A DNA stretch of 64,000 bases from positions 492,939-556,938 of the forward strand of contig CAZSKK010000001.1 of assembly GCA_964607415.1 (NCBI GenBank), read 5' to 3'. This DNA is from an uncultured Candidatus Saccharibacteria bacterium. GTDB lineage: Bacteria > Patescibacteriota > Dojkabacteria > J137. The position numbers and the translations under genes are program-made. The notes under the pieces are model-generated. The model searched no databases, was not told the DNA's origin, and worked only from the letters and a program-made list of their open reading frames with translations. This document shows positions 5,076 through 62,231 of the stretch, one piece after another. The first letter of the stretch is position 1; each line of letters begins with the position of its first letter.

Positions 5076-5191
5076 ATAGTTAGTTGTAAGTGCTATAAAC
5101 AATTTACTAGAAAGGAAGAACCAGCGCAAGATGAGGTTCGAGATAAGTTTAAGTGTAAGATTTAAGAGTAAGGATAAGAATTTGTGATTCT

Positions 5192-5276
5192 TATCGAAGG
5201 AGGGAGTCGAACCCTCACGACCGATAAAGGCCAACGGATTTTAAGTCCGCCGCGTCTGCCATTCCGCCACTTCGAC
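5192..5276 (-). tRNA. tRNA-Leu(TAA), type II with long variable arm.
   Basis: Hand-folded: acceptor GTCGAAG/CTTCGAT with a G-U closing pair, D stem GCG/CGC, anticodon stem GCGGA/TCCGT, anticodon loop CTTAAAA (anticodon TAA), 17-nt variable arm, T stem GAGGG/CCCTC with T loop TTCGACT, discriminator A. No encoded CCA. Confidence 0.85.
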
Positions 5277-5395
5277 ACAATACATTTTTATATTTTAAAG
5301 TTCTAGGAGTCTGCTCCCGCTTCGTAAAACTTCGCGGGACTAAGATCTTCTTACATTCGACAGCACTACGTTTGTCTCATTAAGAATCTCTTGAG

Positions 5396-5418
5396 CATTC
5401 CGCCACTTCGACACAATA
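5396..5418 (-). repeat. 23-nt direct repeat of the tRNA-Leu 5' end plus 6 nt of its 5' flank (CATTCCGCCACTTCGACACAATA). The first copy is 5260..5282 inside the tRNA.
   Basis: Exact match of 5396-5418 to 5260-5282, flanking a ~113-bp spacer that contains a GC hairpin (cccgc..gcggg). Confidence 0.7.
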
Positions 5419-5542
5419 CTAGTCAATAGCAAGTATTATAGCGTTTAAAGTAAAAAGTTTCAAAGGATTTTGAAAAACTCAGCTCTATTCCAACTTAGTT
5501 GGAAATCCCTCTACTTTTTTTATATTCTCAACAGCATGAATC

Positions 5543-5657
5543 GTGAATCACACATTCACGACGAATTTACTTTATAAGTTTGAAACCGTTAATCTGCTCA
5601 ACAACATAAAATGTTGTTTCGTGTTTCAGAAAAGGGTGGCTTTGGCCCGGTGAGGAG
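5543..5657 (+). repeat. Copy A of a structured repeat element: palindrome GTGAATCACACATTCAC, a 36-nt spacer, hairpin GCTCAACAACATAAAATGTTGTTTCG, then a GC-rich GGGTGGC..GGCCCGGTGAGG motif abutting the stop codon of 5658..6686.
   Basis: Sequence identity in the palindrome and 26-nt hairpin, and the same 36/37-nt spacing, with copy B at 42274..42439 in the opposite orientation. TACATTCGACAGCAC (5352-5366) is also shared. Confidence 0.55.
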
Positions 5658-6686
5658 CTACCGTTCTCTAAACTTATATGCAGGTAACTTTTGAGAAGAA
5701 ATTGCCACTCTATAAGTATGAAATTTTAATTTCTCATGCGAAATCACAATATCGTAATTTCCGAATGGAATTTGATTTACTGTAGCAAATTTACCATCTG
5801 ATCCGGTTTTGGTTTCATAAACTCTACCTGATTGTAAATTTTTAAAAACAACTTTGACCTCAGGCACTGGCTTATCTTTTTTATCCACAACTATCCCAAA
5901 AAGTATTTGTCCATTCTGACTGATAAGTTCCCCTTTTTCATTTAACGATTCTGCTTCTGAAGACTTAAGTTCTTCTTTCCCGACAGATTTTAATTTTTCA
6001 AAAAGGGAATTTATTTTATTCATAATTTGAGATTCCTTTTTATTAAATTCCGGATCGTCTTTGGCAAGCCTTGAAAGTTCAAATTTCAAATTTTGTATTT
6101 GGCTTTGGTAATTTTCTGATGGAGCTTGTTCTACAGGCTTTTGCATCTGAGTGTGCGCTGATTGAGGTTTAGGAATGGTTTGCTTTTTTGTTTTTTGTAT
6201 ATCGTTCTTAAAAACTTGATCGTAAACCTGATTTAAATTTCCTGACGGCTCAAGAGAATCCCTATCATTTCCTGCTTTTGAATCTGAACCAAAAATCTTA
6301 TCCAATGGAATATCCGAAATATCAACCTTCCCTTGTTTTTGCATCGCAAGCTGCTGCTGGCTTTTTGTAGGAGATGTAATTTGGCTATTTTTAAGAATAT
6401 CTGGAGCTCTACTACTTTTAACCCAAACATATCGTGGAGATATGAATAAAGCTTTTAAATATCCATTCAACCAGGTACCAAAATTTGGAATAATCGCTAA
6501 AAGTAATCCAGTAAAAACACTTACACCCATGAGCGGGAATTTTATTATTACAGGTAATGGCAAAAAGAAAATTAGGAATGCGCCAACACAACCAAAAACG
6601 ATTTTGGCAAACTGTTTTAAAGTAAAACTTCCAAAAAGTTTGAATTCAACTTCTAAAATATTTTGTGGTACTGGATGTTGCTCCAC
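5658..6686 (-). CDS. Membrane protein with N-terminal TM helices, a low-complexity linker and a C-terminal carboxypeptidase-regulatory-like / transthyretin-like beta domain.
   Basis: Hydrophobic N-terminus (FLIFFLPLPVIIKFPLMGVSVFTGLLLAII). C-terminal GIVVDKKDKPVPEVKVVFKNLQSGRVYETKTGSDGKFATVNQIPFGNYDIVISHEKLKF looks like a CarboxypepD_reg-like fold. Confidence 0.5.
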   Translation of the reverse strand: MEQHPVPQNILEVEFKLFGSFTLKQFAKIVFGCVGAFLIFFLPLPVIIKFPLMGVSVFTGLLLAIIPNFGTWLNGYLKALFISPRYVWVKSSRAPDILKNSQITSPTKSQQQLAMQKQGKVDISDIPLDKIFGSDSKAGNDRDSLEPSGNLNQVYDQVFKNDIQKTKKQTIPKPQSAHTQMQKPVEQAPSENYQSQIQNLKFELSRLAKDDPEFNKKESQIMNKINSLFEKLKSVGKEELKSSEAESLNEKGELISQNGQILFGIVVDKKDKPVPEVKVVFKNLQSGRVYETKTGSDGKFATVNQIPFGNYDIVISHEKLKFHTYRVAISSQKLPAYKFRER

Positions 6687-20913: not shown

Positions 20914-21281
20914 GTTTTTTTATGTCACCCTGAGCTTGTCGAAGGGTTAATATTCGTGCTTAGTTATTCCCCCAAAGGGGTTGTTGTTGAAGCTGTTGTG
21001 AAGAATTTGCTAATCTTTTTCATTAAGTAAGATTATAGCTAAGTATATTCTAAATTTCAAATGGCAATAATTAAAGTTCAAATGTATCACAAGACTCAAA
21101 ACTACTTGCGAATTGAATTCTTATTAAACTTGTTGATCTGTGATTTGGAATTTATGAGTTACAAACTTACTTGTTACTAATTCGTTATTCTAATGATAAA
21201 ATGGATTAGTTTCTATTGGAAGCTGGCAGCTGATGGCTGTGAGCAAGCCTTTGACATTTAACTATTAACTTGTAACTAAAT

Positions 21282-23171: not shown

Positions 23172-23285
23172 CCCCTCCTTGCTCCTCCCCAGTTTTGGGG
23201 AGGAGACCTAGTGGAGGGAATATATTAAAACTAAGCTACTCTCAAATTAATCTCCCCGCCTATGCAGGAGGGGATAAAGGGGAGG
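23172..23285. repeat. Two GC-rich imperfect palindromic elements (23172-23219 and 23252-23285) between asnB and the DUF559 gene.
   Basis: cccctccttgctcctcccc agtt ttggggaggagacctagtggaggg, and tctccccgcctatgcaggaggggataaaggggagg. They are strongly GC-rich against an AT-rich background. Confidence 0.55.
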
Positions 23286-23301
23286 TAAGTAAAGGTAAGT
23301 T

Positions 23302-23667
23302 ATGCAAGTAAATAATCCATACAACAAAAAACTAGTCCATTACTCAAAAGACTTGCGCGCTAATGCAACACCAGGCGAAAGACTACTATGGAAGTTTATA
23401 AACAAAAATCAACAAGGAGTTAAGTTTCGAAGGCAGCACCCACTTCTTAATTATATTGTAGATTTTTACTGTATAAAACTTAGACTTGCCATTGAAATTG
23501 ATGGCAGTAGCCACGATGAAGCTAAGTATTTATATGACAAGCGAAGACAAGTAGAGCTTGAATCTGTTGGCGTTACATTCCTACGCTTCACTGAGCATGA
23601 AACACGTTACAATATCGAAAGTGTATTGCAGACTATTGAGCTGAAAGTATGTGAATTACAGATTTAA
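23302..23667 (+). CDS. DUF559 / Vsr-like endonuclease-domain protein.
   Basis: ERLLWKFI...FRRQHPLLNYIVDFYCIKLRLAIEIDGSSHDE...VGVTFLRFTEHE fits the DUF559 restriction-endonuclease-like fold signature. Confidence 0.7.
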   Translation: MQVNNPYNKKLVHYSKDLRANATPGERLLWKFINKNQQGVKFRRQHPLLNYIVDFYCIKLRLAIEIDGSSHDEAKYLYDKRRQVELESVGVTFLRFTEHETRYNIESVLQTIELKVCELQI

Positions 23668-24614: not shown

Positions 24615-25850
24615 ATGACTCCAAAAGACAGAACAATTGATACAGGAATACTAGGTCTACCCTACCCCGTAATTGGACTTGCACCTATTGATGGTGTTTC
24701 TGATGCTGCTTTTAGAAGAATTACAAAGAAATATGGAAATCCTGATTTGATTTTTACTGAATTTACGCATGTAATGGGCTTATGTTTTGCTGCGGAAAAT
24801 ATACTAAATACTTTTGATTATGAAGAAATGGAAAGACCAATAGTGGCACAAATTTTTGGGAAAGACCCAGAGTATTTTTATCACGCTGCAAAAGTGATTT
24901 GTGCATTAGGATTTGATGGCGTTGATATAAATATGGGCTGCCCCGCGCATAGTGTTTCTAGTAAAGGTGCTGGCGCTGGTCTTATAAAAACTCCAGATTT
25001 AGCAAGAGAAATTATTTTTCAAACTAAACTTGGAGTGAGTGATTGGGTTAAAGATGGAAAGCTTACAGGATTGAGGCCCAAAGCACAAAGAGCGATTGAA
25101 AAAATGGCAGAAAGGAACCAATTAAGAGTTACCACCCCCATCCCCTCTTTTTCTCCCCCAGATCTGGGGGAGAAGCCGAAGGCAGAGGGGGTGGGGGTGA
25201 CTAACCTGCTCGCTCGCGACTCGAAGCTGGTAGCTCGTAGCTCAATCCCGGTTTCGGTCAAAACGCGTATCGGTTACGATGAACCTGTTACTAAAAGCTG
25301 GATTAAAAATCTTGAAAAAGGAAACCCTCAGTGGATTACAGTTCATGGACGAACTTTAAAACAGATGTATACAGGAAATTCAGACTGGAACCAAATTAAA
25401 ATTGCAGTAGAAACCACAGATATACCTGTTATGGCAAACGGTGATGTTAAAGAACACGCAGATATACAAAAGATTTTAGATGCAACAGGAGCTAAAGGGA
25501 CGTTAGTTGCAAGAGGTGCGTTTGGTAACCCGTGGATTTTTGCCTCACCCCCTGCCCCTCTCCTTCAGGAGAGGGTGGCAAGCGCAAGCGAGCCGGGTGA
25601 GGTGTTAGCTGTTCTTCTAGAACACGCCAAACTTTTTGACGAACTGAATAACTACTCCGAAAAAGCATTTGTGCAAATGCGAAAACATTTTGCATGGTAC
25701 ATTAATACAATTACCAAAATGCAAGGAACAAATAACAATAATGTTAAGTTTTTCTTAAAAATGAAGGATTTAAAGACGAAATTGATGCAGGTGAGTAGCT
25801 CAAAACAGGTGGAGCGAGAGGTAGAAAGCTTTAGAGCAGTAGAGCGTTAG
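24615..25850 (+). CDS. tRNA-dihydrouridine synthase (Dus family) carrying two in-frame GC-rich insertions.
   Basis: Dus motifs NMGCP, KTRIG, HGRT and GNPWIF are present. The insertions are TTPIPSFSPPDLGEKPKAEGVGVTNLLARDSKLVARSS and ASPPAPLLQERVASASEPGEVLAV. Confidence 0.8.
   Translation: MTPKDRTIDTGILGLPYPVIGLAPIDGVSDAAFRRITKKYGNPDLIFTEFTHVMGLCFAAENILNTFDYEEMERPIVAQIFGKDPEYFYHAAKVICALGFDGVDINMGCPAHSVSSKGAGAGLIKTPDLAREIIFQTKLGVSDWVKDGKLTGLRPKAQRAIEKMAERNQLRVTTPIPSFSPPDLGEKPKAEGVGVTNLLARDSKLVARSSIPVSVKTRIGYDEPVTKSWIKNLEKGNPQWITVHGRTLKQMYTGNSDWNQIKIAVETTDIPVMANGDVKEHADIQKILDATGAKGTLVARGAFGNPWIFASPPAPLLQERVASASEPGEVLAVLLEHAKLFDELNNYSEKAFVQMRKHFAWYINTITKMQGTNNNNVKFFLKMKDLKTKLMQVSSSKQVEREVESFRAVER
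25131..25258. repeat. GC-rich imperfect palindromic element inserted in frame in dus (palindromic core 25133-25199).
   Basis: cacccccatcccctctttttctccccca gatc tgggggagaagccgaaggcagagggggtgggggtg. No stop codons in the gene frame. Confidence 0.55.
25543..25604. repeat. Second GC-rich palindromic element inserted in frame in dus.
   Basis: cctcacccc ctgcccctctcc ttca ggagagggtggcaagcgcaagcgagccgggtgagg. It shares the GGGTGGC..GCCGGGTGAGG motif with the elements at 5634-5657 and 42417-42439. Confidence 0.5.
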
Positions 25851-34027: not shown

Positions 34028-34102
34028 GTAATATAAAAACGTAAATCTACGTCTTAGTACCAGTGTATAACTTTTTCAAAATGGCTGCAAATGGGAAAAG
34101 AA

Positions 34103-34176
34103 TCAGTTACGAATTACGATTTAGAAATTACGAGAAACAGAATCAATTACTAATTACGAGATCTGAATTACGAGAA
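34103..34176 (+). repeat. Array of AATTACGA(G/T) repeats (about 5 units, plus strand) immediately upstream of the four-helix-bundle gene.
   Basis: cagttacgaattacgatttagaaattacgagaaacagaatcaattactaattacgagatctgaattacgagaaag. Confidence 0.6.
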
Positions 34177-34689: not shown

Positions 34690-34842
34690 TATCTCGTAAT
34701 TCATAATTGTTAACTGCAAATCTACTCTCGTAATTCGTACTTCGTACCTGACAACCTCCCCTCGTAATTCTTATTTCGTAACTGGCAATCTCCCCTCGTA
34801 ATTCGTACTTCGTAACTCGTAATTGCACATGCTATACTTTTA
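34690..34842 (-). repeat. Array of CTCGTAATTC repeats (the reverse complement of GAATTACGAG; about 6 units) immediately downstream of the four-helix-bundle gene.
   Basis: atctcgtaattcat...ctctcgtaattcgtacttcgtacc...cccctcgtaattcttatttcgtaactgg...cccctcgtaattcgtacttcgtaactcgtaattgc. Confidence 0.6.
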
Positions 34843-40439: not shown

Positions 40440-41885
40440 CTATTCATCAAACTTCTCAAACAAAATCCCTGTTTGTCTATTTTTTAACATTTGTTCAGCT
40501 TTTTCGGAACTTTCAGGAATTATTGGCTTAAAAAGAATAATTACTCTTTCTATTAAATAAATAAGATTTTTTATCACCTGTTCAGAATCAACGCTTTCTT
40601 TGCTCCAAGGTTGCTTTTCTGTTATATATTTATTAGCAAACCTTGTTAATTCGTTAATTTGTTCTATTGCTTCAAATACTTCAAAATTTTCAAAATGTTG
40701 GTGATATTTATTTTCAGCTTCTTCAATCTTTGTTAAAACATCTTTATCAACCAAAGATTTGTTTACTTCTCCAATGTTTTTTTTATTAGAAAGATGAATA
40801 ACCCTATTTATAAGATTTCCCCACTGATCTGCAAGTTCCGTTTGATACTTAACTTTAAGCCTTTCAATGCTAAAATCACCATCATTTCCTATTTGAAATT
40901 CCGATAGCAATGCATACCTAACTGCATCAATCCCAAACTCATTTGCTAGATCCACAGGGCTTATTGCGTTTCCGTTGCTTTTGCCAATTTTCAAGCCATT
41001 TACCGTAAAGAATCCTGTTACCAAAATATGCTTTGGTATTTCCAATCCTGCAGACTTTAACATTGCAGGCCATAAAATTGCATGAAATTTTAGAATATCT
41101 TTTCCTACAACATGTGTAACATTGTCTGGCCAAAATTTTTCGGGATATCCTTCCTTTTTGTTTTCTGCAAAATGTAAATATGAAAGATAGTTAGGCAAGG
41201 CGTCATACCAGACATAAATTGTCTGTTCATGATCGAAAGGAACGGGAATTCCCCATTTTACATTAGCTCTAGTTACAGGAATATCTTGAAGTCCAGCTTT
41301 AACAAAGTTTTTTACAAATTCAGCCCATTTTGCAGGTAGAATAAAATCTGGATGTTCTTCGTAATATTCTAAAAGCCAATTTTGATATTTTGACCATCGA
41401 AAGTAGTAGTTTTTTTCCTTTGTATATATTGGAGTTTTTGTAGGATGGTTAGGGCATTTACCATCTACAAGATCAGCTTCACTATAATACGCTTCACAAC
41501 TTTGGCAATACCAACCTTCGTAAGATCCTTCATAAATATCACCATTGTCAAATGATTTTTGAAGTAAATCCTGCGCAAATTTTTCATGCTCAGGATGTGT
41601 GGTTCTCATAAAATAATCATTTGTTATCTTTGTTTTGCTCCAAATTTCTTTGTACGCTTCAGCGTAATCATCAACATACTCGGTAGGAGTTTTACCTTCA
41701 TCAGAAGCTTTTGTCGCAATATTTGCTCCGTGCTCATCTGTACCTGTTAAAAAAAGAGTCTCTGCTCCTTGAATTCTTGCGTATCTTGCAAGTGTATCCG
41801 CAATAAAAACGCAATAGGCAGTTCCAATATGCGGAAGTCCAGTTGGATAAAAGATTGGCGTTGTGACATAAAAATTCTTGTTCAT
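40440..41885 (-). CDS. metG: Methionyl-tRNA synthetase, short form.
   Basis: HIGH region (PTGLPHIGTAY), TGTDEHG, and a KMSKS-like GLKIGKS. Confidence 0.9.
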   Translation of the reverse strand: MNKNFYVTTPIFYPTGLPHIGTAYCVFIADTLARYARIQGAETLFLTGTDEHGANIATKASDEGKTPTEYVDDYAEAYKEIWSKTKITNDYFMRTTHPEHEKFAQDLLQKSFDNGDIYEGSYEGWYCQSCEAYYSEADLVDGKCPNHPTKTPIYTKEKNYYFRWSKYQNWLLEYYEEHPDFILPAKWAEFVKNFVKAGLQDIPVTRANVKWGIPVPFDHEQTIYVWYDALPNYLSYLHFAENKKEGYPEKFWPDNVTHVVGKDILKFHAILWPAMLKSAGLEIPKHILVTGFFTVNGLKIGKSNGNAISPVDLANEFGIDAVRYALLSEFQIGNDGDFSIERLKVKYQTELADQWGNLINRVIHLSNKKNIGEVNKSLVDKDVLTKIEEAENKYHQHFENFEVFEAIEQINELTRFANKYITEKQPWSKESVDSEQVIKNLIYLIERVIILFKPIIPESSEKAEQMLKNRQTGILFEKFDE

Positions 41886-42085: not shown

Positions 42086-42114
42086 AAAAAACAAAAAATC
42101 CTCTTTTGGAGGAT
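42086..42114 (-). terminator. Intrinsic terminator on the minus strand ending the ~330-nt 3' region of 42440..42889.
   Basis: Minus strand: stem GAGGAT/ATCCTC with loop CAAAA, then TTTTTTGTTTTTT. Confidence 0.55.
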
Positions 42115-42273
42115 CTAAAAACAAAAAATGGATGAGCCTCCTAGTATCATTACAGGATTTGCATCATCATTTTTTGGCTATTTGCTTTTATTTGCATAGG
42201 TTGATTATAGCCGAAACTAATAGTACTGCGCAACAGCCTCTCCATGTTTTCACTTCGTTCAAACTTCCCTCTC

Positions 42274-42439
42274 CTGAGATCGAAACAACATTTTATGTTG
42301 TTGAGCAAACTAACACTATTAGGTCTTAAAACCATTTCTCACTGTGAATGTATGATTCACTGTTCGTGCTGTCGAATGTAGCTAATTTTATTCTCGACAG
42401 GATAATATCCTGTCTCGGGGTGACCGTGGGCCGGTGAGG
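42274..42439 (-). repeat. Copy B of the structured repeat element: a GC-rich motif abutting the stop codon, then TACATTCGACAGCAC, palindrome GTGAATCATACATTCAC, a 37-nt spacer and hairpin GCTCAACAACATAAAATGTTGTTTCG. Possible ncRNA or 3' UTR structure.
   Basis: Matches copy A (5543-5657) in all three sub-elements and in spacing. There is an additional hairpin gagacaggatattatcctgtc. Confidence 0.5.
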
Positions 42440-42889
42440 CTACTTTTGCCACTGGCATTTATTACTAGCACTACATCCACATTTATATCCCGCTTGTGTT
42501 GGTGTATCTTGTGCTGGTGCCAAGCAAATAGATGACATTAATTCTTCGTTAATTCCTTGGCAAATTTCCATGTTACATCCAGATACAATACAATCAGAAT
42601 CTGCATTACAAGATGAAAACGTTGAGCTTCCATAATAATCAGTGTTTTCACCCGAATCTAAATTATCTTGCTCCTCTTGGGTCAATTGTCTTATGAAAGT
42701 TGTTCCATCTGGTGTTTTGCACTGCTCTGGATAAGTTTCTAAAATTGGATTTCCAGCTTCCACACATTCCTCATATGAATTTATTTCTTCGTTATCATCT
42801 TTAATCAGAACATATGAAATTACACCTGCAACGCTTGCAATAATAAAAAACAGTATCGCAAAGGTTACTACTAATGTTTTATTTTTCAT
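42440..42889 (-). CDS. Small secreted Cys-rich protein.
   Basis: Signal peptide. About 10 Cys in the mature part (SSTFSSCNADSDCIVSGCNMEICQG...CGCSASNKCQWQK). Confidence 0.5.
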   Translation of the reverse strand: MKNKTLVVTFAILFFIIASVAGVISYVLIKDDNEEINSYEECVEAGNPILETYPEQCKTPDGTTFIRQLTQEEQDNLDSGENTDYYGSSTFSSCNADSDCIVSGCNMEICQGINEELMSSICLAPAQDTPTQAGYKCGCSASNKCQWQK

Positions 42890-61871: not shown

Positions 61872-62189
61872 ATGAGAAAATATGAGTTTTTTGTATATAT
61901 CTTACTATGTAACGATGGTAGCTATTATACGGGTGTAACAAACAATCTGGAACGTAGGCTGTCAGAGCATCAAAACGGAGAAGCAAGTGCTTATACAAAA
62001 CAAAGGTTTTCCAATAAAGTTGAAGAAAAAAGCTTCGTATTCAACGATATAAGGGAGGCTATAGCTTTCGAAAAACAAGTTAAGGGTTGGTCTAGGAAAA
62101 AGAAAAAGACCTTAATAAAAGATGACTGGCAAAATATCTCTAACTTATCAAAAACTGCTAAGTGTCATACTTCGACAAGCTCAGTATGA
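61872..62189 (+). CDS. GIY-YIG nuclease family protein (small UPF0213/YhbQ-like).
   Basis: EFFVYILLCNDGSYYTGVTNNLERRLSEH is the GIY-YIG core. Confidence 0.75.
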   Translation: MRKYEFFVYILLCNDGSYYTGVTNNLERRLSEHQNGEASAYTKQRFSNKVEEKSFVFNDIREAIAFEKQVKGWSRKKKKTLIKDDWQNISNLSKTAKCHTSTSSV

Positions 62190-62191
62190 CA
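62168..62191 (-). repeat. Hairpin with the conserved loop TGAGCTTGTCGAA read on the minus strand (stem GTCATAC/GTATGAC), overlapping the 3' end of the GIY-YIG ORF.
   Basis: gtcatacttcgacaagctcagtatgac. Confidence 0.5.
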
Positions 62192-62231
62192 TGAAAACAA
62201 CCAATTCTTGACTTGTTAGACCAATAATCTT

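Follow-up and report, generated by a model that had tools for sequence, protein, structure and literature searches.

What is the sequence that the 3′ flanks of two unrelated minus-strand genes share, in opposite orientations, in an uncultured Candidatus Saccharibacteria bacterium (GTDB lineage Bacteria; Patescibacteriota; Dojkabacteria; J137)? The stretch analyzed, hereafter the window, comprises 64,000 nt of contig CAZSKK010000001.1 (assembly GCA_964607415.1, forward-strand positions 492,939 to 556,938), has a GC content of 34%, and carries genes typical of the small-genome bacteria of the Candidate Phyla Radiation (CPR). At both loci the shared sequence has a minus-strand gene on one side and, on the other, the promoter of the minus-strand unit that follows. 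At locus A it follows the gene of a 342-aa protein (5658-6686), whose named homologues are from Candidatus Dojkabacteria, and precedes tRNA-Leu(taa) (5191-5277, minus strand); at locus B it follows the gene of a 149-aa protein (42440-42889) and precedes a small unit and then metG (40440-41885). A preliminary description had regarded it as a three-part repeat, either a small structured RNA or an element like a miniature transposable element with inverted repeats (MITE). We put a probability of roughly 0.55 on the reading that its AT-rich part is a small non-autonomous insertion element nested in palindromes of the kind known as repetitive extragenic palindromic (REP) sequences and REPINs. A low-copy, old, and non-autonomous mobile element is the most likely description of it.

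Two copies of one AT-rich segment

In a gapped local alignment, copy A (5528-5636, plus strand) and copy B (42375-42267, minus strand) were identical in 85 of 113 columns and scored 76, and shuffled sequences scored 22.1 on average (standard deviation 2.6, maximum 32). The core of the similarity is a 26-nt hairpin, GCTCAACAACATAAAATGTTGTTTCG, that is letter-identical at 5596-5621 (plus strand) and 42281-42306 (minus strand), occurs exactly twice in the window, and has arms AACAACAT-AAA-ATGTTGTT forming a perfect 8-bp stem. It is accompanied by the palindrome GTGAATCA(C/T)ACATTCAC (in full GTGAATCAYACATTCAC) at 5543-5559 (plus) and 42344-42360 (minus), matching at 16 of 17 positions, and the spacer between the two measures 36 nt at locus A (5560-5595) and 37 nt at locus B (42307-42343), as had been described. 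The palindrome (GTGAAT-N5-ATTCAC) lies near one end of the element and the hairpin near the other. Block by block, the copies agreed at 11/15 positions in the left block, 16/17 in the palindrome, 22/40 in the spacer, and 26/26 in the hairpin. The third part, the 15-mer TACATTCGACAGCAC, was present at both loci without mismatch (5352-5366, plus; 42366-42380, minus), but the described arrangement holds only in part at locus A, where the exact 15-mer stands 176 nt away from the palindrome, within the tRNA-Leu leader, and the copy contiguous with the palindrome is the degenerate TATTCTCAACAGCAT (5523-5537, 10/15 matches). The left flanks of the copies differ (…CCCTCTAC versus …GGTCACCCC).

Chance resemblance between AT-rich palindromes, which nothing beyond the 34% GC content would favor, is already refuted: the alignment score lay approximately 21 standard deviations above shuffles, the hairpin was matched in 0 of 100 shuffles even with up to three mismatches, and the same held for the 27-nt exact match. 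The claim that the similarity exceeds chance therefore stands.

No third copy was detected in the window by an nhmmer profile of the two copies together with pattern scans, nor did the profile find one in the relatives' loci or in the 9.4 kb to the left of the window (L065), so that two copies are known in the approximately 73 kb examined. Many public sequencing runs contain the same strain, with 100% identity over both loci. An exact-hairpin scan of GTDB species genomes with TCAACAACATNNNATGTTGTTTC gave 18 matches, none with the element; these either represented a single conserved coding sequence with different loops or lay in unrelated contexts. The same pattern had 13 matches in IMG/VR, none of them flanked by the palindrome or the remaining element, and a search of IMG/VR for the degenerate left block plus the palindrome had none. 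Five chance matches to CAACAACATAAAATGTTGTTT in JGI metagenomes lacked the remaining element, and blastn in distant mode against phage and plasmid collections returned no match.

These searches bear on the proposal that the element belongs to a family of small structured RNA genes transcribed from its own strand. Its three hairpins do lie at equivalent positions, a 4-bp spacer hairpin forms in both copies from differing sequences, and a weak promoter-like match (TCGACA-17-TACATT) occurs within copy B. However, RNA folding on the element's strand was no better than that of shuffles (z-scores, −1.5 and +0.45), and the two informative hairpins are invariant, offering no covariation, with a weak two-sequence consensus fold. 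Only two tRNAs in the whole window passed the gathering thresholds of Rfam 15, and relaxing the limit to E ≤ 10 at both loci gave noise, with nothing credible overlapping the element. Furthermore, the element's own strand has no downstream terminator, a transcript of copy A would run antisense into the gene end, and neither the relatives' orthologous sites nor the exact-hairpin scans of GTDB, JGI, and IMG/VR yielded a copy. The preliminary description had itself held that two copies without conservation in relatives would refute its interpretation, and for the RNA reading this is what was found; with an unremarkable fold and no Rfam match in addition, a structured RNA is most improbable. As single-stranded DNA, copy A folds into separate hairpins (z = −2.4) and copy B has a z-score of −3.9. 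A coding reading was also rejected: a 61-aa open reading frame (ORF) at 42150-42335 shares only LLNNIKCCF with the matching frame in A, and its upstream part is not conserved in L059, a contig of a relative.

The GC-rich palindromes around the segment

The GC-rich motif that had been counted as a part of the element is an arm belonging to a pre-existing palindromic repeat rich in GC (GPE), CCTCACC…CCCTCTCC-TTCA-GGAGAGGG…GGGTGAGG, approximately 60-90 nt in size. It is not a component of the shared element, since the other GPE arm sits across the insert and the palindrome exists without any insert. The motif aligned at 18 of 22 positions between loci A and B, on the plus strand at both. Its placement exactly at the stop codon held at locus B, which it abuts, but not at locus A, where it ends short of the gene (5655 versus 5658), the arm starting 2 nt after the TAG stop.

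The GPE family comprised three copies in the window (at loci A and B and in a Dus-like ORF) and one in L064, a Logan contig of a relative that served as the comparator for locus A. The L064 copy and two of those in the window directly follow stop codons; at loci A and B, the GPE is in turn followed by the promoter of the next transcription unit. The copy in the Dus-like ORF was found as the third match to GGCCSGGTGAGG, which there forms the terminal part of a 60-nt GC-rich palindrome, and its 20-nt center is identical to that of the L064 copy. As a single strand, the GPE forms a strong hairpin (z = −5.1 in L064 and −3.6 in the Dus-like ORF).

At locus A, L064 encodes an orthologue of the 342-aa protein with 71% aa identity, keeps the gene order, and has an identical tRNA-Leu. 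In the interval from the stop codon to the conserved tRNA promoter, this contig has a GPE without interruption, CCTCACCCGG…CACCACCCTCTCC-TTCA-GGAGAGGGAAATCC…GGATAGGGTGAGG, exactly where the window shows an arm, 111 nt, and an arm. On the gene's strand, locus A reads stop codon, CCTCACCGGGCCAAAGCCACCCTTTTC-TGA, 111 AT-rich nt, GTAGAGGGATTTCC…GAATAGAGCTGAG, and promoter. Its gene-proximal arm occupies the position of the left arm of the intact L064 GPE; the likeness of this arm to the proximal arm of locus B was reached by 83 of 5000 shuffles and that to the Dus copy by 20 of 2000. The distal arm aligned with the right arm of the L064 GPE at a score reached by 0 of 5000 shuffles.

Locus B, on the gene's strand, reads stop codon, CCTCACCGGCCCACGGTCACCCC, 139 AT-rich nt, TCA-GGAGAGGGAAGTTTGAACGAAGTGAAAACATGGAGAGGC, and promoter, and its distal arm resembled the right arm of the L064 GPE more than did shuffles (0/2000 in local and 4/5000 in global alignment). 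Relatives with an 83% identical gene B protein (L059 and L060-L063) have no element and unrelated sequence at this locus: after the stop codon, L059 retains only a decayed homologue of the GPE right arm (23/5000 shuffles), and L060-L063 carry a different, 28-nt perfect palindrome. The metG synteny in L051 and L054 was considered for placing the locus B indel and rejected, as it is not conserved. The AT-rich segment sits between two GPE arms at both loci, no more than a few nt from the apical loop. Coordinates are compiled in Table 1.

Table 1. Positions of the insert copies, the GPE arms, and associated features in the window
Feature	Positions	Strand	Remarks
Extra 136 nt in tRNA-Leu leader	5284-5419	−	24-nt duplicate plus 112-nt interior; absent in L064
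Promoter-like site TTGAAA-17-TATAAT	5435-5463	−	11/12 consensus match; nearly identical in L064; bounds the element, not within it
Distal GPE arm, locus A	5478-5514	−	GTAGAGGGATTTCCAACTAAGTTGGAATAGAGCTGAG on minus strand; the conserved tRNA-Leu promoter comes next, as it does in L064
AT-rich insert copy A, 111 nt	5515-5625	+	Homologous to copy B; absent from orthologous GPE of L064; junctions uncertain by a few nt; contains degenerate 15-mer (5523-5537), palindrome hairpin (5541-5561), perfect 8-bp hairpin (5596-5621)
Gene-proximal GPE arm, locus A	5626-5655	−	Reads CCTCACCGGGCCAAAGCCACCCTTTTCTGA on minus strand; the "GC-rich motif" of the preliminary description
Intact GPE in Dus-like ORF (24615-25850)	25543-25602	+	CCTCACCCCCTGCCCCTCTCC TTCA GGAGAGGGTGGC…GCCGGGTGAGG; in frame, uninterrupted
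Separate conserved unit, outside the element	42086-42233	−	Upstream of metG (41885-40440); TATAAT (42209-42204), 15-codon ORF MQIKANSQKMMMQIL (42197-42150), long hairpin, intrinsic terminator (42116-42086)
Loop remnant and distal GPE arm, locus B	42236-42277	−	TCA GGAGAGGGAAGTTTGAACGAAGTGAAAACATGGAGAGGC
AT-rich insert copy B, 139 nt	42278-42416	−	Opposite orientation to copy A relative to gene and GPE arms; contains extra hairpin (42393-42416), 15-mer (42366-42380), palindrome (42344-42360), hairpin (42281-42306)
Gene-proximal GPE arm, locus B	42417-42439	−	CCTCACCGGCCCACGGTCACCCC; abuts TAG stop of the 149-aa gene (42440-42889)

Loci A and B have proximal arms of one type, and both distal arms are of the L064 right-arm type; therefore, the host palindromes share one polarity relative to the genes. 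The insert, by contrast, is flipped between the loci, with its hairpin end toward the proximal arm at A and toward the distal arm at B. Homology between the copies extends to the GPE core (…TCAG(G/A)A(G/A)AGGG) at one end and to the insert edge at the opposite end, excluding the arms. Since the host arms are not inverted while the insert is, and since homology stops at the core, it was the insert that was copied and not the whole palindrome. A composite palindrome moving whole as a MITE was rejected, as the arm polarity stays the same while the insert is inverted and the L064 palindrome exists without the insert.

The same boundary is what recommends the main rival, recombinational spread through the 8-11-nt GPE core, in which a long-form GPE with an AT-rich interior would have arisen once and its interior would have spread to a second GPE, or flipped, by homologous recombination or gene conversion on CCCTCTCC/GGAGAGGG, with no transposition. 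This core is present on both strands of every GPE and bounds the hairpin side of both copies; as an inverted repeat, it would allow either orientation, and the absence of a transposase from the window and the age of the copies (approximately 75% identity) would suit such a history. Nevertheless, 8-11 nt is a very short shared core for homologous recombination to use, the arms show no conversion tract, and neutral conversion does not predict conserved hairpins beside a diverged spacer. We consider this route unlikely.

The term MITE-like was apt in spirit, a use supported by the indel relative to the orthologous loci of relatives, the two unrelated sites, and the two orientations. It fails in the letter: the insert ends (5515…/…5625 and 42416…/…42278) are not inverted copies of each other, so that the terminal inverted repeats of a MITE are lacking, and the inverted GC-rich flanks are host palindrome arms, which are present without the insert in L064 and in the Dus-like ORF. 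No direct repeat was evident at either junction pair, where the arms have diverged and the junctions can be placed only to within a few nt.

The comparison with relatives also bears on a cis-regulatory or protein-binding role, in which the inverted repeats (GTGAAT-N5-ATTCAC and AACAACAT-N3-ATGTTGTT) would be operators selected upstream of the tRNA-Leu promoter and of the promoter of the unit preceding metG. The two palindromes are indeed far better conserved than the spacer, and at both loci the −35 region of a minus-strand promoter lies approximately 50 nt downstream of the segment's end. That distance, however, equals the length of a GPE arm, the segment faces the promoter in opposite orientations at loci A and B, and in the relatives, which lack the segment, both promoters are almost unchanged. 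An operator module is thus very unlikely.

Several observations concern the GPEs in their own right. The exact 20-nt GPE center, CCCTCTCCTTCAGGAGAGGG, occurs in four unrelated, GC-richer IMG/VR contigs (L067-L070, 49-68% GC), with GGGGTGAGG within 2-5 nt downstream in L067-L069 and GGGAGAGG there in L070; GPE-type palindromes may be widespread well beyond the host lineage. The Dus-like ORF contains two in-frame GC-rich palindromes in this 34% GC genome, at 25132-25201 (70 nt) and 25543-25602 (60 nt). Residues 142-211 of the Dus-like protein, which include the first palindrome, have no counterpart in solved Dus structures, and the second, the GPE, does not lengthen the protein relative to a solved Dus structure. 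Intergenic GC-rich palindromes CTCCTCCCCAGTTTTGGGGAGGAG and CCCCGCCTATGCAGGAGGGG lie at 23180-23290, upstream of a DUF559 endonuclease-like gene (23302-23667), and the former resembles the center of the first Dus palindrome.

Logan short-read contigs of the strain, from several independent samples, all end at the small palindromes 42393-42422 and 5539-5562, and the overlap of the contigs from either side amounts to 29-30 nt at locus B and 24 nt at locus A. Those of the relative (L060-L063) end within the 28-nt perfect palindrome after the same gene. Such contig ends could reflect a sequencing or assembly artifact at hairpins, heterogeneity or flipping in the population, or a further, unseen copy of the repeat at another place.

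A proposed nested insertion element and its known counterparts

In the reading that we prefer, the AT-rich segment of 111 or 139 nt would have interrupted both GPEs at or near the apical loop in this strain. The element would target the palindrome tip, and a near-symmetrical target would accept it either way round, so that copies would come to be inverted relative to the genes and to the GC-rich motif. It may have spread by transposition or by site-specific recombination, with an enzyme supplied in trans and presumably encoded outside the window, for which the conserved hairpins would be the recognition sequences. The GPEs are strong hairpins, so their tips would be exposed loops, and the conservation of hairpin and palindrome (26/26 and 16/17) against that of the spacer (22/40) fits ends kept for recognition and an interior free to change. 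The element is small (below approximately 500 nt) and non-coding, and its presence differs between this strain and its relatives. Both of its conserved hairpins are subterminal, 27-28 nt from the left edge (in A) and 4-7 nt from the right edge.

A number of points weigh on the other side. With only two copies in approximately 73 kb, there is no third to define the ends, the target duplication, or the consensus; terminal inverted repeats are absent, and no target-site duplication is clear. The left junction of copy B lacks the expected …TCTCC of the arm, and copy B has an extra 24-nt hairpin. Pfam searches of 50 ORFs of the window found no transposase, integrase, RAYT, or Y1_Tnp/TnpB, and the identity of approximately 75% between the copies does not show recent activity. 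The element-free sites in the relatives could be deletions and not ancestral empty sites, and at locus B the relatives are too diverged for exact placement of the indel. Finally, a simple insertion model does not explain the exact 15-mer in the tRNA-Leu leader.

Among known systems, palindrome-associated transposable elements (PATEs) and other non-autonomous IS200/IS605 derivatives are short and non-coding, with a hairpin near each end and no terminal inverted repeats. For a description of the family, see PMC3333891. The insert shares this layout of subterminal hairpins at both ends, with neither terminal inverted repeats nor an obvious target duplication, and single-stranded hairpin loops would be plausible targets. 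In contrast to those elements, no conserved 4-5-nt target beside a fixed end could be made out for it, there is no TnpA or TnpB nearby, and its two copies are too few to define cleavage sites. By this comparison, mini-elements derived from IS200/IS605 appear to be nearest in form to the insert.

Insertion sequence (IS) elements of five families preferentially target REP palindromes, and joining the flanks of such an insertion restores the REP (PMC1525189); elements that target REPs or palindromic units include IS1397, ISKpn1, IS621, ISPpu9/ISPpu10, and ISPsy8 (PMC1525189, PMC12288879). Here, too, a foreign segment splits an extragenic GC-rich palindrome, the joined flanks rebuild that palindrome, and the GC-rich fragments are target and not terminal repeats. 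However, those IS elements are autonomous and transposase-encoding, with lengths of 1-1.5 kb, whereas the insert is 111-139 nt, non-coding, and AT-rich, and no transposase was found in the window.

The host GPE, as distinct from the insert, can be compared with REPs, which form REPINs, are mobilized by RAYT Y1 transposases, and resemble the subterminal hairpins of IS200/IS605 (PMC3116915, PMC3333891). Like them, it is a GC-rich imperfect palindrome with two inverted arms and a short loop that forms a stable hairpin, and it is repeated and mostly extragenic, several copies lying in 64 kb and those between genes standing just after stop codons. On the other hand, REPs go with a single-copy RAYT gene and a conserved tetranucleotide (such as GTAG) at their 5′ end, and no RAYT was found among the window ORFs; the host has a GC content of 34%, and one copy lies in frame within a gene, which is unusual for REPs. 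The ERIC/IRU and BOX mosaic repeats occur in hundreds of copies in enterobacteria and streptococci. These palindromic intergenic repeats likewise have short and long forms, the long form carrying an extra internal block at a fixed position, but they belong to other lineages and show no sequence relationship. Rickettsia palindromic elements are inserted in frame in genes, and the GPE in the Dus-like ORF similarly leaves the reading frame open; it differs in having no sequence relationship to them, and this second GC-rich stretch does not lengthen the protein.

A further proposal is that, in the Dojkabacteria lineage, hairpin tips are the preferred landing site of tiny hairpin-bearing single-stranded DNA transposons, served by a Y1/HUH-type enzyme elsewhere in the genome, with nested palindromes in either orientation as the outcome. 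It would fit the occurrence of the insert at the tips of two GPEs, the additional 24-nt hairpin bordering copy B, a GC hairpin of 20 nt in a terminator loop of L059, and the nested Dus palindrome at 25132-25201. To our knowledge, loop-targeted mini-elements have not been described in the CPR, and we regard the proposal as quite unlikely.

Neighboring features and implications

The element had been described as reading into tRNA-Leu at locus A and as lying, at locus B, in a 3′ region of approximately 330 nt that ends in an intrinsic terminator. Neither account was borne out. At locus A, a strong conserved promoter (TTGAAA-17-TATAAT) lies between the element and the tRNA, and no terminator-like site, i.e., a GC-rich stem plus a U-tract on the gene's strand, was found. 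At locus B, a promoter and a short conserved unit intervene between gene B and the terminator (42086-42116), the only one of the locus, which thus lies downstream of a separate promoter and is no intrinsic terminator of gene B.

Downstream of the locus A promoter, L064 has 21 nt and then the identical tRNA-Leu. The longer leader in the window contains a duplicate (5396-5419) of 5260-5283, that is, of the tRNA 5′ end and 6 upstream nt, together with 112 interior nt that hold the exact 15-mer and a GC hairpin, TCCCGC…GCGGGA. This leader segment looks like an integration or recombination scar at the tRNA 5′ end, and the 15-mer hints at a second recombination event with the same sequence family. 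A tRNA-derived origin of the 15-mer was considered and found unconvincing, as the 7-nt core TTCGACA in common with the tRNA-Leu 5′ end has an estimated p of roughly 0.02.

The unit upstream of metG is, from TATAAT to terminator, almost 100% identical in L059, whereas the element region is not. Its 15-codon ORF starts 6 nt after the −10 box (in L059, MMMM, with one additional in-frame ATG), and its RNA would form a long hairpin, in which the AUG run is paired, ahead of the terminator (fold z = −4.2). L051 and L054, whose MetRS proteins are 75-76% identical, have a TATAAT and a 14-15-codon ORF of other sequence (…FFFMP, …FFIMP) upstream of metG. Between the terminator and metG there is another promoter-like site, TGCTACAGT (TGCTATAGT in L059), and the unit may therefore be independent. 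It could be a small RNA or peptide gene, or a leaderless Met-rich leader peptide or attenuator of metG. In L059 (approximately 1130-1150), the loop of the otherwise identical terminator contains the 20-nt GC-rich mini-hairpin CCATGCCAGAGGCAGGTAAA, a hairpin nested in a hairpin tip.

Two other regions of the window carry repeats. A gene for a 23S rRNA intervening-sequence protein (PF05635; 34317-34679) has short tandem repeats of 34-40 nt on both sides (34096-34175 and 34693-34817), with CTCGTAATTC / GAATTACGAG motifs. A stand-alone gene for a 105-aa GIY-YIG nuclease lies at 61872-62189; its 3′ end (CTTCGACAAGCTCAG…, 62170-62197) is an inverted copy of the intergenic stretch 20917-20944, 41 kb away (89% identity over 28 nt), which suggests another small selfish element or remnant.

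The finding opens no long-standing question. For annotators, it means that the GC-rich motif beside stop codons is a repeat arm and not a gene signal, that in short-read assemblies of this organism contig ends fall at GPE-type palindromes, and that the locus B terminator belongs to the conserved unit before metG, possibly more interesting than the repeat. CPR genomes measure approximately 1 Mb and are usually thought to be repeat-poor. If the proposed reading is true, it would add a small non-autonomous element and a family of REP-like GC-rich palindromes to the CPR, and would provide a clean example of a symmetrical hairpin target taking an insert both ways round.

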